Assembly (NCBI GenBank): GCA_021796115.1
Contig: JAJYOP010000007.1
Coordinates: 10,329-74,328 of the forward strand
Length of the DNA: 64,000 nucleotides
From: a bacterium
Lineage (GTDB): Bacteria; Omnitrophota; Gorgyraeia; Duberdicusellales; 4484-171
Reading direction: 5' to 3'
Positions 46,603 through 64,000 of this stretch are shown here, piece by piece. Below the pieces are notes generated by a model, which saw only the letters and a program-made list of their open reading frames with translations, was not told the origin of the DNA and did not search any database. Numbering within the stretch: the first letter of the stretch is position 1; the number at the start of each line of letters is the position of its first letter. A program made the position numbers and the translations under genes.

Positions 46603-46625
46603 AATATCATACATACCTCATTTTT

Positions 46626-46829
46626 CTGAACATTCCCCGGAATTTAAGGGTATCTTGGCATAACTCTATGTAAAACAAGCGATAACGAAGATAAAAATCT
46701 ATGATTCTTCAGGGGGCGGAGGCAAACGGATTTTAGCGGATGCAGACGGATAAAAAACCTATAATTATCCGTATGCATCCACAATCATCCGTGACATCCG
46801 TCCTTAAAAATAAAAAAATGGGGAAGCTC
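46626..46829 (+). repeat. 204-bp dispersed repeat, copy A
   Basis: ctgaacattccccggaatttaagggtatcttggcataactctatg...ggatgcagacggataaaaaacctataattatccgtatgcatcc...aaaaatggggaagctc; about 98% identical to copies at 52532 and 63656. Confidence 0.85.
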
Positions 46830-46907
46830 CAGACCTCATTTTTTCCTTTAAAAATCTAAACTATGTGGTAATATACATAATTTAGGTTTTATCATTCTTG
46901 GATTATT

Positions 46908-48196: not shown

Positions 48197-48970
48197 ATGA
48201 TAAAAAAAATATCCCAAAATATTTCTAAACTACAAAATACTTTATTATTTATTTGCGCTACTTTGTTGCTGGGTATCATTATAACACTTGGATGGATTAA
48301 CCATTTTGATTTTGAACGCTCCGTCGTAAATGCGGAGTTGCGGGAGCTTTTAATTATTGCTAAGTCAGCCGGCCACGATATTGAAAACGGAATTATTGGC
48401 ATTAAACAAGAACCGGCTTATATAGATAAACTTATACAGCATATAAATAACGAGGAAAAGTTTGCGACTTTTGTTATGAACAATAAACACATTGTTTTAA
48501 GCAGCCCGATTAAAAGGCAGGTGGGCAAGAATATCATTGAAATTGGGAGAGAAATATTAAATAATAAAGAAATGCACAAATTAAGCAGGTTTGTGCAAAA
48601 ACTGGATTCGAACGACTCCGGAACAGCAATTTTACTTTTTCCTGCAAAAAGCGAAAGTTCAAAGAAAGAAATGAAGTTGTTTGCTTTCACTCATTTGAAA
48701 GGAAAAACCGGAATCTATTCTATTGTTGTGACAGAAAGGTTAAGCGCTCTCACGGGCCCGTTACGCAGAAATTTAAGAGATATATTAGTGCTGGTAGGGT
48801 TATTTTTCCTTATATCTTTAATCTTCATCTATATTTTTTATCATGGCCATCAGAAAAGGATAAAAATGGAAATCAGCGCCAAAGCCTTAGAGATAATCAA
48901 TAGAGAATTGCATTGTACAATTGATGACTATAAGTGTATTGAGAAGAAACTTAACGATTATAAAAAATAG
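48197..48970 (+). CDS. Two-TM membrane protein with periplasmic sensor-like domain and very short cytoplasmic tail (possible truncated sensor)
   Basis: TM1 aa 15-35, ~155-aa extracytoplasmic segment, TM2 ILVLVGLFFLISLIFIYIFY, 40-aa tail; no kinase/MCP domain. Confidence 0.45.
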   Translation: MIKKISQNISKLQNTLLFICATLLLGIIITLGWINHFDFERSVVNAELRELLIIAKSAGHDIENGIIGIKQEPAYIDKLIQHINNEEKFATFVMNNKHIVLSSPIKRQVGKNIIEIGREILNNKEMHKLSRFVQKLDSNDSGTAILLFPAKSESSKKEMKLFAFTHLKGKTGIYSIVVTERLSALTGPLRRNLRDILVLVGLFFLISLIFIYIFYHGHQKRIKMEISAKALEIINRELHCTIDDYKCIEKKLNDYKK

Positions 48971-49160: not shown

Positions 49161-49574
49161 TAATAAAAGATATGGCAAAGCTCAATCGCGGTCTATTCTT
49201 TATTGCTCGATTGTTCAAACTGCCCTTAGGCGGGTTCAGTTAAAAAAAGACGGTATGGTTTTTTTATTAAAAATAGAACCATACCCTTGATTGTTAAATA
49301 ATAATTAAACATTGCGTTTCCAGATTTGTAATTCCAAATTAATTCTCTGGCTGAAAACTATAAGTTATGTTAATATCACAAATATAAAAAGGAAAAGTAC
49401 TGTATTTATACCGGTTGGCATTCTTATTCCGCCTTTGAAATATAAAACCTTGGTTATGGTAAAATTGGCGTTTGTTTTAGCCTATAACAGCCAGAAAAAT
49501 CAAATTCATAGTTAATTCTTTCTGCTTTGCGTGTTACTCTATCGAAAAGAACTGATTATTATAAGGTAATTAAA

Positions 49575-51308
49575 ATGAATCCCGAACTGACTCCTACCTA
49601 TTATAACCGCAAGACAATCATAGTCGTGCTTTCGTTAGGCTTATTATGTTTTGCAGCTTATGGAACAAGTATCCATAATGGTTTTCTGATGGATGATGCT
49701 AAAGCGGTTCAGCAGAATATTTTAATTAGAAACTTATTATCTTTCCCACAATATTTTCATCAACCATTCATGAAAGGTTATTATAGGCCAATGACTCAGT
49801 TTTCCTTTGCTTTAGATTATCTGATTTGGAAGCTGAATCCTTTAGGGTATCATTTAACTTCCATAGCTATACATTTTTTAAATAGCGTTCTATTATTCAT
49901 CCTGCTGCAAATAATATGGGAAAGATTTGCGCTGTCATCAGTGGTATCGTTTTTATTTGCCGTTCATCCTTTAGGCAGTATAGCTGTCAATTATGTCGCT
50001 GACAGAAGCAACCTTTTAGGCACGTTATTTATGCTAAGCGCATTAATAGCATTCTGTGTGGCCTGGAAAGGATACGACAGGAGATTTTACCTGGTAGGTT
50101 TCTTATTCTTTATTTGCAGTCTCTTAAGCCACGAAAGCGCAATTTTATTTCCATTATATTTATTCTGTACCCTCTCACTGCTATCTAAAAAATCCGATAC
50201 AAAAAAGTTGATAATCCTGACTGGTTTTGCCATTTTTATAAGTTTTGGATATTATCTATTGCATATTCTCTTTTTTAACTTTGGCACAAAAATATTCCCC
50301 GATATTAAATTGCAGGAATATTTTCGAAATCTGCCCGCATTATTTTATTTAATTTTTAAATATCTCTTGCTTGCAATATGGCCCGTCAATATTTGCCTGA
50401 TTCGTTCTCTTGCCCCGATGCCAACTTTCAGCCCACTAGGAATCTTTTATATATTTCTAGGCATCGTTTTTATCTCTCTGGTACTAATCAAATTTCGTAA
50501 AAACCGAGTCATACTTTTTTCTTTGGCATGGTTTCTTATCGGGGTTTTACCGTTATACCGTATGATGTTTGCACGGCCGGAAATGGGGTTGATTATGCAG
50601 GATAACTGGATATATTTTGCTTCTATAGGATTGCTGATTATTTACGGCCAATGCATTTTATTTTTAAGGAAATTTTTTAAAAAATGGTTAATTTTATTAT
50701 TGGCACTTTTGTTTTTTTATATAAATCTAGACCTGTTTAATAATGCGTTATGGAAAAACGGGGAAACGTATTGTTCTTATTGGCTTAAGGTAGTTCCGAA
50801 AAATCCACTCGCTTTTAACGGAATGGGGGTATTTTATACTGATAGGAAAAATTATAAAAAAGCAAAAGAATATTTCTTAAAAGGAGTATTTTGTTGCAGG
50901 AAGATAAATGGTTTAAGTGTGACTAACGAACTAATACCAGGAAGATTATTGGGGGAACTTTTAAATAACCTGGCTATAGTTTCAGATATGGAAGGCAACC
51001 CGGATGAAGCAAGGCGTTATTGCGAGTTGGCAATTATGAGCTACAATAATAACTCCGACGCCTATTTTTTTCTGGGCAACTTATATTTGCGAAAGAATGA
51101 TATAGATAAAGCCATTTTATATTATAAAGAGTCAGTGAAAAAAAATTATTATCGAATGGATGCTCATCGGCAACTAGCGCTACTTTATTCTTTAAAGGGT
51201 AATAAAAAAGAAGCAATTAAGGAAGCTATGGCGGCAATCTCTCTAGATCCAAACTGTTTTAACGTATTTGGCAATACGCAGGGTGTTCGGAATACAAAGG
51301 AAAAATAA
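49575..51308 (+). CDS. TMTC/DUF1736-like GT-C fold glycosyltransferase with C-terminal TPR repeats
   Basis: ~10 TM N-terminal domain with YYRPMTQFSFALDYLIWKLNPLGYHLTS (PMT/TMTC-like loop), C-terminal TPR repeats (AYFFLGNLYLRKNDIDKAILYYKESV...). Confidence 0.65.
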   Translation: MNPELTPTYYNRKTIIVVLSLGLLCFAAYGTSIHNGFLMDDAKAVQQNILIRNLLSFPQYFHQPFMKGYYRPMTQFSFALDYLIWKLNPLGYHLTSIAIHFLNSVLLFILLQIIWERFALSSVVSFLFAVHPLGSIAVNYVADRSNLLGTLFMLSALIAFCVAWKGYDRRFYLVGFLFFICSLLSHESAILFPLYLFCTLSLLSKKSDTKKLIILTGFAIFISFGYYLLHILFFNFGTKIFPDIKLQEYFRNLPALFYLIFKYLLLAIWPVNICLIRSLAPMPTFSPLGIFYIFLGIVFISLVLIKFRKNRVILFSLAWFLIGVLPLYRMMFARPEMGLIMQDNWIYFASIGLLIIYGQCILFLRKFFKKWLILLLALLFFYINLDLFNNALWKNGETYCSYWLKVVPKNPLAFNGMGVFYTDRKNYKKAKEYFLKGVFCCRKINGLSVTNELIPGRLLGELLNNLAIVSDMEGNPDEARRYCELAIMSYNNNSDAYFFLGNLYLRKNDIDKAILYYKESVKKNYYRMDAHRQLALLYSLKGNKKEAIKEAMAAISLDPNCFNVFGNTQGVRNTKEK

Positions 51309-51309
51309 G

Positions 51310-52077
51310 ATGCTGTGTGGTAAAAAAATTGTTGTGGTTATGCCGGCATATAATGCCGAAAAAACGCTGGGAAAGACCTATGACAAAATTCCTAAAAATA
51401 TTGTGGACGAAGTTATAATAGTAGATGATTATAGTACGGATGAAACAGTCAATATAGCGAAAAAGATTGGTTTAGAACCTTATATCCATGAAAAAAACAA
51501 AGGTTATGGTGCGAACCAAAAAACCTGTTATAAACTAGCAATCAAGCACAATGCTGACATTGTGATAATGCTTCACCCTGATTATCAATATCCCCCCGCA
51601 TTAATTACTGCAATGGCTAGCTTATTATGTTCCGATATGTTCGATATAGTCCTGGGGTCGCGTATACTGGGAGGATATGCTCTTAAAGGAGGTATGCCGT
51701 TGTACAAGTATATTTCTAACAGGTTACTTACTTTTGTAGAGAATTTAATTCTTGGAATAAAACTATCCGAATATCATACAGGTTACAGAGCATTCACAAG
51801 AAAAGTGCTTCTGGAGATGCCGTTGCTGAATAATTCCGATGATTTCATTTTTGATAACGAAATCATTGTTCAGGCTGTTTATTTTGGTTACAAAATAGGC
51901 GAAATAACAGCCCCATCTTCTTATGGGGAAGATTCTTCCAGCATAAATTTGTGGAGGAGTATTGTTTATGGTTTAGGCGTGTTGTTAACGACGTTAAAAT
52001 TTTTATTACAAAGTTTGAAAATCGCAAATTTTTCAATATTTGATCCAAAAGGCAAAAAGCTTTTGGTGGAAGATTGA
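51310..52077 (+). CDS. GT2 polyprenyl-phosphate glycosyltransferase (Dpm1/Ppm1-like)
   Basis: VVMPAYNAEKTL...IIVDDYSTDETVNIA...DADIVIMLHPD (DXD) ... C-terminal TM; ATG 51310 directly after upstream stop. Confidence 0.75.
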   Translation: MLCGKKIVVVMPAYNAEKTLGKTYDKIPKNIVDEVIIVDDYSTDETVNIAKKIGLEPYIHEKNKGYGANQKTCYKLAIKHNADIVIMLHPDYQYPPALITAMASLLCSDMFDIVLGSRILGGYALKGGMPLYKYISNRLLTFVENLILGIKLSEYHTGYRAFTRKVLLEMPLLNNSDDFIFDNEIIVQAVYFGYKIGEITAPSSYGEDSSSINLWRSIVYGLGVLLTTLKFLLQSLKIANFSIFDPKGKKLLVED

Positions 52078-52531
52078 TTTAATCCTCGCTAGATACCCCA
52101 GTCTTTAGAGTAGGGATGCTTCGCTTTGGCAGAAAGATAAATTTCAGATATCAAAAATACGAGCCTTCGCCGGCCAATATACGGCCAGTGAGGGCTTTAT
52201 TTTTGATAAAGATTCGTTAATAAGAGAATAATAATTTAAATCCCTTGCATCTCTGCAAGCTCCGGCGTTCTGTCTCTTTCCGCAAGGGGTTAAAGACGAT
52301 AAGCTGGCCCTTGACAAGATTCAGCGTTATTTTTATGCTGTAAGAAAAAGGAATGTTTTATCGGACAGGATTACCTTTGTTCAGAAAAAACTTTATTGCT
52401 TTTTTCATGGATTCGAAAAAGATGATTAGCACTAAGACCAGCATGACAATGGTAAGGATGGCGTTTAAATTTCCCTGGAAAGTGTGTTTAGGCAGGTAAT
52501 TATTTTATGTTATCAAGGCCAGCCACAAATT

Positions 52532-52735
52532 CTGAACATTCCCCGGAATTTAAGGGTATCTTTGCATAACTCTATGTAAAACAAGCGATAACGAAGATAA
52601 AAATCTATGATTCTTCAGGGGGCGGAGGCAAACGGATTTTAGCGGATGCAGACGGATAAAAAACCTATAATTATCCGTATACATCCACAATCATCCGTGA
52701 CATCCGTCATTAAAAATAAAAAAATGGGGAAGCTC
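52532..52735 (+). repeat. 204-bp dispersed repeat, copy B
   Basis: Near-identical to 46626-46829; runs in frame into the malic enzyme ORF (no stop). Confidence 0.85.
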
Positions 52736-52828
52736 CAATCACAAATTTTCTTGAAAATTACCACAGTTAGTCCTATAATAACCTCCTTATACGCCTGGAG
52801 ATTTTGTCAAATATTAAAAGGAAGTGCA

Positions 52829-54202
52829 ATGACAGGAGTAGAGAAGTATTCGCACAAAATTGTAAGAAAAATAAGATTTAGAATACCGGATATTCCCGGA
52901 GCCCTTGGCACACTTGCACTTGAGCTGGGATTAGAAGACGTAACTTTAGGTGACATAACAAAAATCCAGCTTACCTCTAATTATATCGTAAGAGACATTA
53001 CGGCCTTCTTTGATGACGAAAGTCATTTCAGCAGGGCCATTGCTGCCGTAAAGAAACTCAAAGGTTATAAGATATTGCAGATACAAGATGAAGTTTTGAA
53101 TTTGCATAAAGGCGGAAAAATTGAGGTGAAGCCCAGGGTTAAGGTCGACACGCTTACGGATTTGCGCATGATTTATACTCCTGGCGTTGCCCAGGTTTGT
53201 AATTATATCGTTGCCAATCCCGGTGCGGCAAAAAAATATACTTCGATAGGTAATACTGTTTGTATCGCAACCAATGGCTCAGCGGTTCTCGGGTTGGGCG
53301 ATATTGGCGTTTTGGCGGCAATGCCGGTGATGGAAGGAAAGTCTATCATTTTGAATAAAATGGCCAATGTAAGTTGCGTTCCGTTGCTTACAAAAAGCGA
53401 TGATGCCGATACAATCGTCAATACGCTTAGTTGTGTAGCAGAAACATTTGGCGCAATCATGATAGAGGACATTAAAGCGCCGCTTTGTTTTGAGGTCGAG
53501 AAAAAATTACAGGAAAAAGTAAAAATTCCCGTATTCCACGATGATCAACATGGAACAGCAACAGTTATATTGGCGGCTTTAATAAAAGCTCTCGGCATTA
53601 CTAGGAAAAGAAAAGAAAAAGTAAATATCGTTATAAACGGGGCCGGTGCCGCCGGGATCGCCACGACAAAACTGCTTTTAGGATACGGTTTTAAGAATAT
53701 AACTCTTTGTGATAGGTCCGGGGCAATTTATCAGACAAGAACCGATGGCATGAACGAATATAAAAAAGAAATAGCAAAACTTACCAATAAACGCAAAGAG
53801 CAAGGAAGCCTTGAGAATGTCATAAAAGGCAAGGATATATTTATCGGTTTATCAGGCCCAGGGCTGGTTACGAAAGGTATGGTAAGAAACATGAACAAGC
53901 CACCGGTTGTCTTTGCTTTGGCTAATCCCATACCGGAAATCTGGCCAAAAGACGCTGGAGAGGCCGGTGCGGCCATAGCTTTAGATGGCAGGACGATAAA
54001 TAATGCGCTTGTTTTTCCAGGGCTTATCCGCGGGACACTTGACGCAAATGCTTCTGCAATAACCGAGAAGATGAAATTTTCTGCCGCCGAAATGATAGCA
54101 TCGCTGGCCGGCAAAAACGAAATCGTGCCTAACTTTATGAACACGGCTGTGCACAAAAATGTGGCTCGGGCTGTATTCTTCTCTGCCGGTAAATCTAAAT
54201 AG
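52829..54202 (+). CDS. maeB: NAD(P)-dependent malic enzyme with N-terminal ACT-like domain
   Basis: SD aaaggaag then ATG 52829; ACT-like N-terminus (RIPDIPGALGTLALELG), malic enzyme core (YTPGVAQVC, GLGDIG, FHDDQHGTA, NGAGAAGIA). Confidence 0.8.
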   Translation: MTGVEKYSHKIVRKIRFRIPDIPGALGTLALELGLEDVTLGDITKIQLTSNYIVRDITAFFDDESHFSRAIAAVKKLKGYKILQIQDEVLNLHKGGKIEVKPRVKVDTLTDLRMIYTPGVAQVCNYIVANPGAAKKYTSIGNTVCIATNGSAVLGLGDIGVLAAMPVMEGKSIILNKMANVSCVPLLTKSDDADTIVNTLSCVAETFGAIMIEDIKAPLCFEVEKKLQEKVKIPVFHDDQHGTATVILAALIKALGITRKRKEKVNIVINGAGAAGIATTKLLLGYGFKNITLCDRSGAIYQTRTDGMNEYKKEIAKLTNKRKEQGSLENVIKGKDIFIGLSGPGLVTKGMVRNMNKPPVVFALANPIPEIWPKDAGEAGAAIALDGRTINNALVFPGLIRGTLDANASAITEKMKFSAAEMIASLAGKNEIVPNFMNTAVHKNVARAVFFSAGKSK

Positions 54203-54224
54203 CGATGATTTACTTTTCTAAGGA

Positions 54225-56006
54225 ATGAAAAAGTTAAAAATAATACTTTCATTTCTTTTTATCTTATTTTCCGTATTTACTGCATTTTTACCATGTTTAA
54301 ATAATGGGTTCGTTAACTGGGACGATCCAGATCATGTTACCGGTGAATCGGCTGTTCATGTTTTATCGTCGCCGAACTTAAAAGAAATTTTCACCTCCTT
54401 TTCTTCAGGCGAATATCAACCCATAACCACCTTATCTTTTTTATTGGATTATCATGTCTGGAAACTAAATGCATTTGGCTACCATTTGACAAGTTTAATC
54501 TTGCATGCAGTAAATTGCTTGCTTATATTTTGGCTGATTTTTATCCTGACAAAGGATATTTTTGCCTCGTTAATTACTGCCTTATTATTTGGCATCCATC
54601 CATTACAGGTAGAGGCGATTGGCTGGATTACCCAGAGGAAAACCGAAGTTTATGCGCTTTTTTTCCTAGGGTCTATAATAGCCTATCTTTATTATCTTAA
54701 AAATAATTCTGCTGGGAAATTTTACTTTTTTTCGCTGATTTTATTTATTCTTTCGCTTTTGTCAAAACCAATGGCTGTGACTTTGCCTATAGTTCTCCTT
54801 ATGGTGGATTATTTTGAGGGTAGAAAAATAAGTAAAATTGTTTTTATTGAAAAAATTCCTTTCTTTATTTTATCATTAATTTTTGCAATAATCGCCATCT
54901 ATGGGCATAGCCTTGCACGCTTCATTCGGCATGTGGACGCACCTAGTTTATTTTCCAATATAATGATTGCTTCGGGTTCAATTATCTTTTATCTGCAAAA
55001 ACTGTTTTTTCCTGTTAAGCTTTCTGTTTTATATCCCTATCACGGATTAGAAAATACCGGCTTACCACTGTTTTTATATTCGTTATTTGCTCTGTTTATC
55101 CTGATAATGGTTATTATTTTTTCAGGCCGCTGCACAAAAAAGATTATTTTTGGAAGCAGCTTTTTTTTGATTACGCTCTTGCCAGTCCTCCAATTTGTGC
55201 CTATCGGAGTAGCCATAGTAAATGATCACTATGCCTATATTTCATCCATAGGCATATTTTTTATTATAAGTGAAGGAATTGTCTGGCTGTTTTCTAAAAG
55301 GTTAAAAGGCCATAGCCTAGCCAGGTTAATACTTCTATCGATTATAACCGCCCTAATCTTTGTTTTATTTTCGTTAACAGGGCAGAGATGCAAAGTATGG
55401 AAAAACAGTACAACTTTATGGAACGATGTTTTGAGTAATTATCCCAATGCTGACATTGCATATAATAACAGGGGCGCAGAATTTTTGCTGCATAAACAAT
55501 ACGGCATGGCATATGAAGATTTTGTCAAAGCTTTAAGCATCAACCCTGATTGCCTGCCTGCTTTTATTAATCTTGCCAGGGTTTATGATTACTCCGGAAA
55601 GTATAAAGAGGCGATAGAATACTGTAGCAAGGCATTGGAGATTGACCCGGCATCTTTAGAGGCATATGAATTACTGAGAGCTTTGTATGATAAAACCGGA
55701 AATTATGCTAAAGCGATAAATATTGATAAGGAAATAATTAAAAAGTATCCGAATTACGCATTGGGATATTGTAATCTTTGCAGCGCTTATGGTACGGCGG
55801 GCAATTTAAAGGAAGCAATAGCAATGTGCAAAAAGTCTTTGGAAATTAATCCAGATTTAGCTTTGGCGCACATGAAGCTGTCAGTGGCTTATTTTTACAC
55901 AAAAGAATATGCCAAGTCCATTGAAGAATGCAGGAAGGCAATGGAGTTAGGATATAATCCTCCCAAAGAATTTTTAGAATCACTCAAACAGGAATCTCCG
56001 AAATGA
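54225..56006 (+). CDS. Second TMTC/DUF1736-like GT-C glycosyltransferase with C-terminal TPR repeats (paralog of 49575..51308)
   Basis: YQPITTLSFLLDYHVWKLNAFGYHLTS, multi-TM, TPR block (AYNNRGAEFLL...AIEYCSKALEIDP...). Confidence 0.65.
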   Translation: MKKLKIILSFLFILFSVFTAFLPCLNNGFVNWDDPDHVTGESAVHVLSSPNLKEIFTSFSSGEYQPITTLSFLLDYHVWKLNAFGYHLTSLILHAVNCLLIFWLIFILTKDIFASLITALLFGIHPLQVEAIGWITQRKTEVYALFFLGSIIAYLYYLKNNSAGKFYFFSLILFILSLLSKPMAVTLPIVLLMVDYFEGRKISKIVFIEKIPFFILSLIFAIIAIYGHSLARFIRHVDAPSLFSNIMIASGSIIFYLQKLFFPVKLSVLYPYHGLENTGLPLFLYSLFALFILIMVIIFSGRCTKKIIFGSSFFLITLLPVLQFVPIGVAIVNDHYAYISSIGIFFIISEGIVWLFSKRLKGHSLARLILLSIITALIFVLFSLTGQRCKVWKNSTTLWNDVLSNYPNADIAYNNRGAEFLLHKQYGMAYEDFVKALSINPDCLPAFINLARVYDYSGKYKEAIEYCSKALEIDPASLEAYELLRALYDKTGNYAKAINIDKEIIKKYPNYALGYCNLCSAYGTAGNLKEAIAMCKKSLEINPDLALAHMKLSVAYFYTKEYAKSIEECRKAMELGYNPPKEFLESLKQESPK

Positions 56007-59981: not shown

Positions 59982-60641
59982 ATGCTTATCGCGCTGCTAC
60001 AGGTTTTTGCCATTGGATTCAGTCTCGGGTTTACCGGCCCGTGCCTTTTTTACTGCCTTCCCGTTATTCTTGCTTTTACTCAAGGGGCCGGCAAAGGTTT
60101 TAAAAAATCCTTAACCGATATCCTGATATTTTTCTGCGGCAGGCTGTTTGCCTATGTAGTGCTTGGCATCCTTGCCGGAATTTCCGGCATATTGCTTCGC
60201 AAATTTATTGATTCAAGCTTCAAATTATATCTTAATCCTTTAGCCGGATTAATCAGTATAGCTCTTGGTATTTTTATTTTGTTGAACAAGGAAGCCGGCC
60301 AGGAAAAATGCGAGAGAAAATTGAGTCAAGCCAGCACTTTTGGGAGCTTGTTCCTGTTTGGTTTTATAATTGGCATAAGCCCTTGTGCGCCGCTACTGGC
60401 CTTGCTTTTTGAAATCGCGCTTATTTCGAAGAGCGCATTTGGCGGGGCGCTTTATGGCCTGGCTTTTGGTTTAGGCACATTTGTTTCCGGTGTCATTATC
60501 GCCGGCGGCTTTATAAAAATATTCAGCCGCCTTCCGGAAAATTTTCTTAAATCAAACCGCAGGAAATTTATGCTAAAAAGCATTTGCGCTTTAATACTTA
60601 TAATATTCGGCTTATGGTTTATTCTGGCGCAAAAAAAATAA
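59982..60641 (+). CDS. DsbD_2/CcdA-like membrane protein (putative thiol-disulfide transfer)
   Basis: 6 TM; paired Cys in TM1 and TM4 (GFTGPC, GISPCAP). Confidence 0.45.
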   Translation: MLIALLQVFAIGFSLGFTGPCLFYCLPVILAFTQGAGKGFKKSLTDILIFFCGRLFAYVVLGILAGISGILLRKFIDSSFKLYLNPLAGLISIALGIFILLNKEAGQEKCERKLSQASTFGSLFLFGFIIGISPCAPLLALLFEIALISKSAFGGALYGLAFGLGTFVSGVIIAGGFIKIFSRLPENFLKSNRRKFMLKSICALILIIFGLWFILAQKK

Positions 60642-62899
60642 AAAGAGTCCTGTCCCTTTCAATTATTTGTACCGGCTTTGTTGCCATGGCCGGGCAAATT
60701 GTTTTCATTCGCGAATTTTTAGCCTCGTTTTCCTCGGATGAACTTTCCGTCGGTTTAGTATTAGCCAGTTGGCTGCTTGCCGGAGCAATCGGCAGTTTAT
60801 GGCTTGGCAGATTCAGCGATAAAATCAAAGCAGGATATTTTTTCCTTTGGCTCTGCCAGATGTCCCTGGTATTTCTGCTTCCGCTGGGAATTCTACTTAT
60901 AAGATTTGCCAGGCAGTTCCTTCAAATCAATATCGGAGAGATTATCCCGTTTCATATCGTCGGCCTGGCGACTTTTATAATTTTACTCCCGTTATGCGCA
61001 GCCTTAGGCTTTATGTTCAGCCTTTCGGCAAGGCTCTATGAAGCAGAAAGAAACTTGAAAGCCGGCAGTATTGCCAGAGTATATGCTCTTGAATCGTTTG
61101 GCGCAATGGGCGGAGGGTTATTCGCCAGCTTTATTCTCATATCCCTGCTAAACAGTTTTCAGGTCATCTCAATTTTATGTTTTTTGAATGCCGCCACAGG
61201 CCTGTTTATTATTTTACTTTTAAGAAAATTTAAATCACCGCCGGTATTTTTTAATACGTTATTAATCGTTATTTTATTTTTTTTATGGTTAAGTAAAGGC
61301 TGGAACGGGCTCGACAGTTATTCCTTAAAAAAACAATGGCCGGGATATTCGATTTTAGCATCGAAAAATTCCATCTACGGCAACATTACGGTTTTAAAAC
61401 GAGGAAAAGCCGTCTCATTTTTCGAAAACGGGACCCGCCTTTATACCGTGCCTGACAAAATGCTTTCCGAAGAAGCAGTGCATTTCACCCTCCTTGAGCA
61501 CAATGCACCAAAAGATATACTTCTCATTGGCGGAGGCGCCAGCGGTTTGCTCAACGAAATTCTTAAATATCCAATACATCAGGTTGATTATGTTGAACTC
61601 GACCCGTTGGTTATAAAAATGGCAGAGGAATTGCTGCCATCCCAATATTCAACATCTCTTAAAAACCAGAAAATTTCAATAGCTAATCTTGATGGCAGGT
61701 ATTTCATCAAGAAACAGGATAAAAAATATGATTGCATTATTATACATTTGGGCGAGCCTTATACCGCGCAACTGAACAGATTTTATACCAAAGAATTTTT
61801 CCGGCAAATTGCCGGGCACCTGAAAGAAGGAGGCATTGTTTCTTTCTATCTTAACGCTTCAGAAACCTACATCAATAAGGCTATGGCTGATTTTTTGCGC
61901 TCTATCTACGTGGCTTTAAAAACAGCATTCAGCGAAGTAAAAGTTTTTCCGGGAGAAACAATATATTTTTTAGCTTCAAACTCAAAAGGGATTTTAACCT
62001 ATGACTATAACTTGCTCATGCAAAGAGCTCGGGAGAGGGGATTGGATTTGAAGTATGTGCGCGAATATTATTTATTTTCCCGCCTTTCTCCGGAAAAGAT
62101 AGCTTACCTTGGAAACCTGCTGCAGAAAGACAATGCTACCAGGGTTAATTATGATTTCAGGCCGTCCGCCTATTATTACGGCATTATCTCCTGGGCGGTG
62201 CGCTTTAAAGATTCTTTATTCTTAAAAATATTAAAATCCGCAAATGAAAAAATAATCTGGATAATTTTATCTCTTTTGCTCGCAGCTTTATTAGGCACAG
62301 GTATGGCGGGTTTTAAGAAAAATATACTTTTGATTTCAATTGGAATTTGCGGATTTGTCCAGTCGGCAACACAGCTCGTGCTGTTATTTTCTTTTCAGAT
62401 TATTTACGGTTATCTTTTTTATAAATTAGGCATATTATTTACTTTTTTTATGCTGGGTTTAGCCCTGTCGAGCTGGCAATTAAGCAGCAAAATCGACAAG
62501 GCAAAAATTAATTTTAAAACTATTACCCGGCTGAGCTCAATTAATTTTCTATTTTCCTTATTTCTTCCTTTGGCTTTATACGGTTTTTCCTCGGCAAGGG
62601 CCGCACCTATAGCGTGGTTTGGCGCAAATATATTTTTTCCGGCGGTGTCTTTAGTATCGGGCTTGCTGGGAGGAATTATCTTTGCGATGGCGAATAAAAT
62701 CTATCTTGACGAAAGCAAAAATAAAGCCTATGGTGCAGTATCAGGCTTAACTTACGGCGCGGATTTGTCAGGAGCCTGTTTTGGTGCAGCAATCAGCGCT
62801 GTGTTTTTGATTCCCTTGATTGGCATCGATAAAACTTGTCTGATTCTAGCTCTTTTAAGCCTCACGGTTTCTGCGGCGCTATTATTGTCAGACAGATAA
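60614..62899 (+). CDS. Fused MFS-like membrane domain :: spermidine-synthase-like (aminopropyltransferase fold) protein
   Basis: N-terminal 7-8 TM, central LLIGGGASGL...VDYVELDP...DCIIIHLGEP (SpeE-like), C-terminal additional TMs; start uncertain (TTG 60584 / ATG 60614). Confidence 0.7.
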   Translation: MVYSGAKKIKRVLSLSIICTGFVAMAGQIVFIREFLASFSSDELSVGLVLASWLLAGAIGSLWLGRFSDKIKAGYFFLWLCQMSLVFLLPLGILLIRFARQFLQINIGEIIPFHIVGLATFIILLPLCAALGFMFSLSARLYEAERNLKAGSIARVYALESFGAMGGGLFASFILISLLNSFQVISILCFLNAATGLFIILLLRKFKSPPVFFNTLLIVILFFLWLSKGWNGLDSYSLKKQWPGYSILASKNSIYGNITVLKRGKAVSFFENGTRLYTVPDKMLSEEAVHFTLLEHNAPKDILLIGGGASGLLNEILKYPIHQVDYVELDPLVIKMAEELLPSQYSTSLKNQKISIANLDGRYFIKKQDKKYDCIIIHLGEPYTAQLNRFYTKEFFRQIAGHLKEGGIVSFYLNASETYINKAMADFLRSIYVALKTAFSEVKVFPGETIYFLASNSKGILTYDYNLLMQRARERGLDLKYVREYYLFSRLSPEKIAYLGNLLQKDNATRVNYDFRPSAYYYGIISWAVRFKDSLFLKILKSANEKIIWIILSLLLAALLGTGMAGFKKNILLISIGICGFVQSATQLVLLFSFQIIYGYLFYKLGILFTFFMLGLALSSWQLSSKIDKAKINFKTITRLSSINFLFSLFLPLALYGFSSARAAPIAWFGANIFFPAVSLVSGLLGGIIFAMANKIYLDESKNKAYGAVSGLTYGADLSGACFGAAISAVFLIPLIGIDKTCLILALLSLTVSAALLLSDR

Positions 62900-62918: not shown

Positions 62919-63653
62919 TTGCCTCATTTAACAATGAAAAGGCCATTTGTTTTCTTTTGCATCTTTCTGCTGGCAGGAATTTTTCTGGCAGTAATCACCT
63001 ACTCGGAAAGCTTATTGCCATTACTTTATTTTTTCTGGAAAAGCCCGTTTTTAATTTTTATCAGGACAATCTGTATTCTGTTATTTGTCTTTTTGCTTTT
63101 TAAAAAAATTGATCAAAAACTAGTCCCTAAAAATTGGTTGAAATTTATTTTTGGAATCATCTTTCTACCGGTGCTCTTTCTGCCGATTTTACGCTGTTAT
63201 TTTAGAGTTCCCTATATTTTCTGCCGTGCCTGCCCAAACAAATGCCCATGGGGGATGTCGCGGACTTTCTTTTTTGATTCTTTTATTGCGCTTAATCTCT
63301 CCAAAAAATTCTGGTGCGCAAATGTTTGTCCTTTTGGGGCATTCCAGGAGTGCCAGGCGCAAATATCAAAGAAGAACCTGAGGCTTCCTGCCTGGCTATC
63401 CCCATCTTCTTACCTTATTTTATTTATTCTTCTTTGCATGTATTTGTTAACTTTTTTGGGATTACCGGCAATAAAATTCTTTGGCCTTTGGATGTATGCC
63501 TGGGCTGTCGCATCAGTTTCCATTGCGGTTCTTGTCATCGCCGCTGCATTTTTTGTTCCCAGGATTTTTTGCCGTTATATTTGTCCGGTAGGAACAATCG
63601 CAGAATTAAGTTTTAAGTTTAAACGCTGGTTAGGATTGGATAAACACTTTTAA
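62919..63653 (+). CDS. NapH/MauN-like membrane protein with 4Fe-4S-type Cys motifs
   Basis: CRACPNKCPWG, CANVCPFGAFQEC, CRYICPVGTIAE; multiple TM. Confidence 0.55.
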   Translation: MPHLTMKRPFVFFCIFLLAGIFLAVITYSESLLPLLYFFWKSPFLIFIRTICILLFVFLLFKKIDQKLVPKNWLKFIFGIIFLPVLFLPILRCYFRVPYIFCRACPNKCPWGMSRTFFFDSFIALNLSKKFWCANVCPFGAFQECQAQISKKNLRLPAWLSPSSYLILFILLCMYLLTFLGLPAIKFFGLWMYAWAVASVSIAVLVIAAAFFVPRIFCRYICPVGTIAELSFKFKRWLGLDKHF

Positions 63654-63655
63654 TC

Positions 63656-63859
63656 CTGAACATTCCCCAGAATTTAAGGGTATCTTGGCATAACTCTATG
63701 TAAAACAAGCGATAACGAAGATAAAAATCTATGATTCTTCAGGGGGCGGAGGCAAACGGATTTTAGCGGATGCAGACGGATAAAAAACCTATAATTATCC
63801 GTATACATCCACAATCATCCGTGACATCCGTCCTTAAAAATAAAAAAATGGGGAAGCTC
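63656..63859 (+). repeat. 204-bp dispersed repeat, copy C
   Basis: Near-identical to 46626-46829 and 52532-52735. Confidence 0.85.
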
Positions 63860-64000
63860 AAGTTTTAATTTTCTGTTAGCTAAAATTCAAAATGAGACTT
63901 TTTAAAATTGAAAAGTAGACAATCCTAGCTCATGCTTTTTGATTCTTTGTACATCGATGAGTTTATTGTTACCCCAGAACCTTAATTCTATGAGTGTGTT

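Follow-up and report, generated by a model that had tools for sequence, protein, structure and literature searches.

Within a 64,000-nucleotide stretch of an Omnitrophota genome (GenBank assembly GCA_021796115.1, contig JAJYOP010000007.1, positions 10,329 to 74,328; hereafter the window), positions 49575-56006 contain two genes, A and B, whose products are probably inner-membrane glycosyltransferases of the GT-C type that form part of a bacterial branch of the animal TMTC family. Gene A is directly followed by a gene for a family 2 glycosyltransferase (GT2), which would synthesize a lipid-linked sugar donor; after flipping, the sugar would be transferred in the periplasm by A, and perhaps also by B, to an acceptor chosen by their tetratricopeptide repeat (TPR) arrays, most plausibly a protein. 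We assign a probability of roughly 60% to this reading as a whole, i.e. to the family assignment taken together with the donor pathway and the protein acceptor. An earlier note, made from the letters of the DNA alone, had described the span as a eukaryote-like O-glycosylation module of three genes. Its observations were largely right and are partly confirmed here, and its interpretation is partly supported.

The relationship to TMTC was assessed with profile hidden Markov models (HMMs) in both directions. The animal model comprised 12 membrane domains (TMTC1-4 each from human, fly and zebrafish) without the TPR region, taken from the alignment in Additional file 1 of Eisenhaber et al. 2021 (PMC7801869). 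It matched B with 80.2 bits (single-sequence E 9e-27) and A with 69.9 bits (E 1e-23). All 371 bacterial family members examined were also matched, with a minimum of 39.6 and a median of 96 bits, but none of 120 GT2 control proteins. One reverse model was based on 38 B-type membrane domains and the other on those of the 12 sequences of the A subfamily described below. Both scored 12 of 12 animal TMTCs at 64-105 bits, as against -1.5 bits for ArnT (5EZM), about -10 for Pmt1 (6P25) and about -20 for PglB (5OGL). Judged from these profile comparisons, the homology of A and B is specific to TMTC and goes beyond a general GT-C resemblance, and the two proteins are classed as TMTC-like SPECIFICALLY. 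The TMTC-like label of the earlier note is thus borne out by reciprocal matches.

The Pfam models PMT_2, PMT and DUF1736, which the earlier note had named as those to search with, matched neither protein, even at E ≤ 10. When A and B were compared with Pfam and NCBIfam at full length or as their first 400 residues, only TPR matches were obtained, and the membrane domains had no match at E ≤ 10. A phmmer search of the membrane domains against the PDB sequences found nothing, and the full-length family profile retrieved only TPR proteins from the PDB. The failed Pfam test is explained by the place at which A and B have diverged. Their alignment with the TMTC profile splits in two (profile positions about 5-215 and 305-424), and the unaligned middle, which comprises transmembrane helices (TM) 6/7 and the TM7-TM8 loop, is the region that the Pfam DUF1736 model (PF08409) describes. 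The DW motif of this loop signature is replaced by LY in B and by IR in A. Some homologues bridge the gap by exceeding Pfam gathering cut-offs: P0166 does so for TMTC_DUF1736 (30.6 bits, cut-off 27), P0162 for PMT, and P0183 and P0006 for PMT_2, the PMT and PMT_2 passes being few and marginal. A shares 29% identity with P0166 over 398 aa, and several homologues carry the JGI label "protein O-mannosyl-transferase".

A and B are paralogues, as had been proposed, with 28% identity over 550 aa (E 2e-39). Gene A (49575-51308, + strand) encodes 577 aa from its ATG, and gene B (54225-56006, + strand) encodes 593 aa; the length of about 593 aa that the earlier note gave for both applies to A only if translation starts at the alternative TTG at 49527. 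The two loops that it had quoted, YYRPMTQFSFALDYLIWKLNPLGYHLTS and YQPITTLSFLLDYHVWKLNAFGYHLTS, are present verbatim in the translated open reading frames (ORFs), and the C-terminal TPR repeats are confirmed by Pfam matches in both proteins. In A, the membrane domain covers residues 1-392 (49575-50750) and the TPR region residues ~393-560; the corresponding parts of B are residues 1-390 (54225-55394) and ~391-590. Structures predicted with AlphaFold2 (AF2) from the family alignment had a pLDDT of 91.0 and a pTM of 0.91 for A, and of 90.9 and 0.86 for B. Both models consist of 11 membrane helices followed by a TPR solenoid. The B model resembles solved GT-C enzymes, with scores of 19.2 for ALG12, 18.8 for Pmt4, 18.5 for STT3B, 17.6 for Pmt2, 15.9 for AglB and 15.2 for both ArnT and PglB, so that the predicted membrane domain has the GT-C fold. 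The GT-C-like domain of the earlier note therefore stands, but its count of about ten helices becomes 11, which were assigned by hand from the AF2 secondary structure and agree with the loop charges. Lys and Arg residues in the short loops are distributed 10/2 in A and 5/1 in B between the inside and the outside. This distribution fits a cytoplasmic N-terminus and, with 11 helices, places the first non-cytoplasmic loop, with its pair of aspartates (DD), and the TPR array in the periplasm in the predicted topology. The arrangement is like that of TMTC in the endoplasmic reticulum (ER).

Conserved acidic residues in the first periplasmic loop had been named as a feature to look for, and they are present. 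The DD pair, for which we adopt the putative catalytic and metal-binding role proposed together with the other TMTC motifs by Eisenhaber et al. 2021 (PMC7801869), corresponds to Asp40-Asp41 of A (49692-49697, + strand) and Asp33-Asp34 of B (54321-54326, + strand). For A, it is invariant in 43 of 43 aligned homologues and falls on the fDD of the TMTC profile; for B, it is invariant in 39 of 39 aligned sequences. The motifs of A and B that could be mapped to TMTC are DD, Y-R/Q-P, LFAVHP/LFGIHP, the R of GRAD, SK/SH-E and D-x-Y-x-Y-x-S-x-G; their counterparts in TMTC1-4 are the loop-1 DD, Y-R-P, LFAVHP, the R of GRAD, K-E and the D/E-R-x-x-Y-x-P-S-x-G region. The same invariance holds for Y-x-P in SHKSYRP, for two His and one Asn in TM2, for LF-x-x-HP, for the GRAD Arg and, in the loop-5/TM10 region, for Y...G. 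Other TMTC residues are replaced. At the position of the putative donor-binding Arg of loop 5 (AERV in TMTC), described as a phosphate contact, 33 of 39 sequences of the B family have Arg, but B itself has His and A has Asn. Of the D/K pair of loops 2 and 3, B keeps Lys181 and has Thr in place of the RKD Asp, and A has His and Asn. Neither protein thus carries the loop-5 Arg and the intact D/K pair of the TMTC type.

The span consists of four + strand genes, namely A, GT2, a malic-enzyme gene and B. The GT2 gene (51310-52077, + strand, 255 aa) has its ATG one base past the stop codon of A and is translationally coupled to it. It is followed by a gap of 570 bp, which includes a 221-nt repeat element (52528-52748, + strand), and then by the malic-enzyme gene (52724-54202, + strand, 492 aa as called in an identical public contig, L001), whose stop codon lies 22 bp upstream of B. 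The span is therefore composed of an A-GT2 operon and a separate malic-enzyme-B pair, with the repeat dividing the two units, and the malic-enzyme gene stands outside the glycosylation module. According to the earlier note, A and B flank the GT2 gene in a three-gene module. A does abut it, but B is cut off by the gap, the repeat and the malic-enzyme gene; since these intervene, the three genes are not contiguous, and the module that remains is the smaller A-GT2 unit. The 577-, 255- and 593-aa products of A, GT2 and B were matched exactly in a public protein collection.

The GT2 product is placed in its family by Pfam (PF00535, E 8e-23), as the earlier note had supposed. Its best NCBIfam matches are AglJ, PpgS and a haloarchaeal Dol-P-hexose transferase, followed by PgfS and ArnC, all of them far below the respective cut-offs (AglJ 72.9 bits against 325, PpgS 57.9 against 370, ArnC 24.5 against 529). 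No curated equivalog cut-off that would name the sugar of the GT2 was reached, and the NCBIfam matches name differing sugars. When the GT2 family profile was compared with the PDB, the best match was PfDPMS (5mlz), the dolichyl-phosphate mannose synthase of P. furiosus (E 2e-11, 170 residues), followed by ArnC (E 2e-5). The polyprenyl-phosphate glycosyltransferases (Dpm1/DPMS, GtrB, ArnC, AglJ, PpgS) are thus the group to which the enzyme is most similar. One hydrophobic helix is found near the C-terminus (residues ~218-236). From these similarities, the GT2 is probably a polyprenyl-phosphate sugar synthase. The description as Dpm1/Ppm1-like is right in so far as PfDPMS and ArnC are the nearest solved relatives, but with sub-cut-off NCBIfam matches it over-specifies the sugar. 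The GT2 subfamily is abundant and highly conserved, with more than 8000 homologues at E < 1e-20 and ~70% identity among the matches listed. Named homologues come nearly all from Omnitrophica or Omnitrophota and have generic names only.

Conservation of the gene order was examined from three sides. In the A subfamily, GT2 directly follows the A-type gene in three of six loci, i.e. in the window and in two public loci, L002 and L168, whose GT2 proteins are 74% identical to that of the window; it is absent after the A-type gene in the other three (L003, L166 and L167). A-GT2 is thus a recurrent pair. In L002 (4065-11482), the gene most closely related to A (55% identity) comes first in a glycosylation cluster that is larger than that of the window and in which the A-type GT-C/TPR gene and the GT2 gene are followed by genes for a GT2-methyltransferase fusion, a PMT_2 protein and a PTPS_related membrane protein. 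For the B family, 80 loci were sampled with one genome per species, of which four (L008, L013, L052 and L058) have a GT2 like that of the window at a distance of up to 6 kb. The position of B 2 kb downstream of GT2 has no support from conservation. In a third sample of 80 metagenome loci centred on close GT2 homologues, tblastn detected a TMTC-like gene nearby in about ten. Among 95 immediate neighbours of GT2 homologues, 22 encode large polytopic proteins, including six PMT_2 proteins, six DUF6798 proteins, four TPR-bearing polytopic proteins and three transporters. The GT2 subfamily thus tends to adjoin GT-C enzymes of several kinds, and a genomic pairing of GT2 with a GT-C transferase is observed. 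Given the heterogeneous neighbours, we rejected the idea that the subfamily is dedicated to TMTC-like partners. We also rejected a single conserved module of all three glycosyltransferase genes, because of the four in 80 B-type loci with GT2 and because the malic-enzyme gene is not found beside the B homologue in locus L004. In the 80 B-family loci, tblastn detected no malic-enzyme gene.

We propose the following scheme. The GT2, probably a membrane-anchored enzyme of the GT-A type, would act at the cytoplasmic face and load a monosaccharide from a nucleotide sugar onto polyprenyl (presumably undecaprenyl) phosphate, and a flippase would move the lipid-linked sugar across the membrane. A could then use it as periplasmic donor by means of its DD site, with the TPR array selecting the acceptor, most plausibly Ser/Thr residues of particular envelope proteins, as in TMTC1-4. 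B would act likewise, independently and from its separate unit, with the same or a different donor pool. The polyprenyl-phosphate substrate, the flipping step, the identity of the sugar (for which mannose would be a candidate) and the protein nature of the acceptor are those parts of the scheme that we infer from the likeness to known enzymes. A protein acceptor is favoured because of the specific TMTC homology, the fusion to TPR repeats and the arrays of paralogues described below.

Several points weigh against this scheme. Apart from the missing direct Pfam matches and the replaced loop-5 Arg in both proteins, A lacks the Glu of HPxxE and the Lys of SK, and with these altered residues A may use a different chemistry. 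In the GT2, an invariant H-P-D stands opposite the DAD of PfDPMS, so that only the second Asp is kept, and the NCBIfam scores are as low as given above. The adjacency of GT2 is not general in either the B-family or the GT2-centred loci, neither a gene for a flippase nor one for nucleotide-sugar synthesis was noticed in the vicinity, and our literature searches found no experimental study of a bacterial TMTC-like member. Finally, most characterised bacterial systems that combine a GT2 with a GT-C enzyme modify glycans or lipids (ArnC/ArnT, GtrB/GtrC, CsbB/YfhO, PpgS/Rv3779). For this last reason, we take seriously an alternative in which the enzymes and the donor logic are the same and the acceptor is an envelope glycan or lipid, such as lipopolysaccharide (LPS) core, lipid A, capsule or a cell-wall polymer. 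The TPR array would then dock the enzyme on the envelope assembly machinery instead of selecting client proteins. In view of the TMTC-specific homology, we regard such an acceptor as unlikely, yet as the alternative with most precedent among characterised bacterial enzymes.

Two further explanations concern the individual enzymes. The GT2 could be an ordinary GT-A transferase that acts on another acceptor and adjoins A because both serve envelope biogenesis, with the donor synthase for A and B encoded elsewhere. The sub-cut-off NCBIfam scores, the presence of GpgS, which is unrelated to polyprenyl phosphate, in the NCBIfam list, the H-P-D in place of DXD, the single hydrophobic helix and the generic database names all agree with such a role, and the 95 neighbours are mostly unrelated genes from 109 Pfam families. 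However, PfDPMS and ArnC are the closest solved structures when the whole catalytic domain is compared, the top three NCBIfam families all move sugars onto polyprenyl phosphates, the coupling to A recurs in two other loci, and PMT_2, DUF6798 and TPR-bearing proteins make up most of the polytopic neighbours. We therefore consider this explanation rather improbable. Still less probable in our view is that A is a catalytically altered or non-catalytic paralogue, e.g. a regulatory or chaperone-like partner. The small, divergent subfamily of 12 sequences in which A is placed has indeed lost residues conserved in the rest of the family: the Glu of HPxxE is replaced by Ile, Val or Leu in 12 of 12 (it is Glu in 30 of 31 sequences elsewhere), the Lys of SLLSK by His or Arg in 12 of 12, the loop-5 Arg/His by Asn in 10 of 12 and the RKD Asp by Asn in 9 of 12. 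Yet these replacements are coordinated and themselves conserved, a new Asp143 is found in 11 of 12, and DD, Y-R-P, both His, HP and R144 are invariant in the subfamily. From the invariant core and the conserved replacements, the pattern looks like an active site that is maintained and retuned, not one in decay. Moreover, it is A that is coupled to the GT2.

Among the known systems, animal TMTC1-4 (CAZy family GT105; TMTC_DUF1736 plus TPR) share with A and B an N-terminal GT-C domain of 11 TM helices and a non-cytoplasmic TPR array at the C-terminus. In contrast to them, A and B have no Pfam DUF1736 match, the phosphate-binding Arg is His (B) or Asn (A), and there is a shorter TPR array. They also belong to a bacterium, in which the periplasm would be the site of transfer and undecaprenyl phosphate, instead of dolichyl phosphate, the carrier. 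The PMT/POMT enzymes of GT39, including actinobacterial Pmt, carry a luminal MIR domain, whereas A and B have a TPR array and no MIR domain. The latter also match neither PF02366 nor PF13231, and Pmt1 scores at about -10 bits with the bacterial profiles. An ArnT-like assignment (GT83), which the earlier note had named as the result that would speak against it, was considered and rejected: no ArnT model is among the NCBIfam matches, 5EZM scores -1.5 bits, and the C-terminal domain is TPR. In the ArnC/ArnT and GtrA/GtrB/GtrC-type systems, the acceptor is lipid A or O-antigen and there is no TPR domain, unlike in A and B; no gene for a GtrA-like flippase was noticed near A or GT2. TMEM260 (DUF2723), a further O-mannosyltransferase, is like A and B in that it combines an 11-TM GT-C domain with a C-terminal TPR-like region, and distant bacterial homologues of its family have been reported (PMC10214176). 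A and B have no DUF2723 match, however, and their sequence homology points to TMTC.

That the TMTC enzymes constitute a separate pathway of cadherin O-mannosylation in animals is a recent insight. Their bacterial relatives have been mentioned only in passing: Eisenhaber et al. 2021 noted TMTC homologues "even among prokaryotes" (PMC7801869), a 2021 review attributed TMTC-like genes to protists and considered it probable that the last eukaryotic common ancestor already had them, and metagenome studies, one of them of the gut microbiome, give counts for GT105. The bacterial TMTC-like family is already in the databases, and the locus is not unusual for it. The present comparisons show that these relatives form an enormous and specifically TMTC-like family, whose members often occur in tandem arrays. 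The membrane domain of B (395 aa), which represents the main and very large part of the bacterial family, matched 76,113 cluster representatives (clustered at 50% identity) at E ≤ 1e-3, 44,672 at E ≤ 1e-10 and 15,499 at E ≤ 1e-30. The species-representative genomes yielded at least 597 matching stretches, and those relatives that carry a name belong to Omnitrophota, Bacteroidota, WOR-3, Sumerlaeota, Planctomycetia, Fibrobacteraceae, Gemmatimonadota and others. Tandem arrays of two or more copies were found in 18 of 85 loci, with up to seven copies in 14 kb, which suggests a diversified acceptor specificity. In six of these loci (L044, L048, L026, L076, L057 and L029), from Bacteroidales, Fibrobacteraceae and other metagenome-assembled genomes, four to seven TMTC-like GT-C/TPR paralogues lie within ~14 kb.

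A wider interpretation can be offered only tentatively. Many bacterial phyla, with named relatives in Omnitrophota, Bacteroidota, WOR-3, Elusimicrobiota and others, might run a periplasmic protein O-glycosylation of the TMTC type. Its paralogues, which would differ in their TPR arrays and have retuned active sites, would each be devoted to another class of envelope proteins, and the A-GT2 operon would be a self-contained unit of donor synthase and transferase. If all of this were true, the cadherin O-mannosylation enzymes of animals would be descendants of a very large bacterial protein-glycosylation family. Independent of this, the A-GT2 operon is a compact, clonable pair of candidate donor synthase and transferase, which makes the question of the sugar and the acceptor testable.

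The remaining features of the span concern the malic-enzyme gene and the repeat. The identity of the malic enzyme is supported by the Pfam domains malic and Malic_M and by the NCBIfam model for NADP-malic enzyme (E 9e-92); about 125 aa at its N-terminus, ahead of the malic domain, have no Pfam match. The mechanically derived ORF (52646-54202) opens within the 221-nt repeat, whereas in the identical public contig the gene is called from 52724 onwards, so that Met27 is probably the true start. Since the ORF begins inside the repeat, tblastn also finds its first 31-41 codons at 46740-46865 and at 63770-63862. A malic-enzyme homologue (41% identity) occurs ~1.7 kb from a close GT2 homologue in one other locus (L105, 2677-4017), the only other such co-occurrence seen, which is probably a coincidence. 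The 221-nt direct repeat is present in the window in three copies of the same orientation (46622-46842, 52528-52748 and 63652-63872) that are 95-100% identical, and the first two of them stop shortly before the following + strand gene or within its start. Its core contains three CGGAU and three AUCCG blocks that form a long interrupted hairpin (minimum free energy of the RNA -52.9 kcal/mol, z -3.4). Rfam has no family for the repeat and gave no match in the whole window. The repeat could be an element similar to a miniature inverted-repeat transposable element (MITE) or a shared leader or regulatory RNA.

Elsewhere in the window, a 257-aa ORF just upstream of A (48197-48970) has hydrophobic stretches close to its two ends and matches no model of Pfam or NCBIfam. 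At 60584-62899, a 771-aa protein is encoded in which a polytopic membrane domain is fused to a spermidine-synthase domain; it passes the NCBIfam model "fused MFS/spermidine synthase" with 66 bits against a cut-off of 40. Practically all long ORFs of the 64-kb window are on the + strand, and the few on the - strand each overlap + strand genes. The cumulative GC skew climbs almost monotonically over the same distance, and the window is thus an unusually long one-strand coding run.

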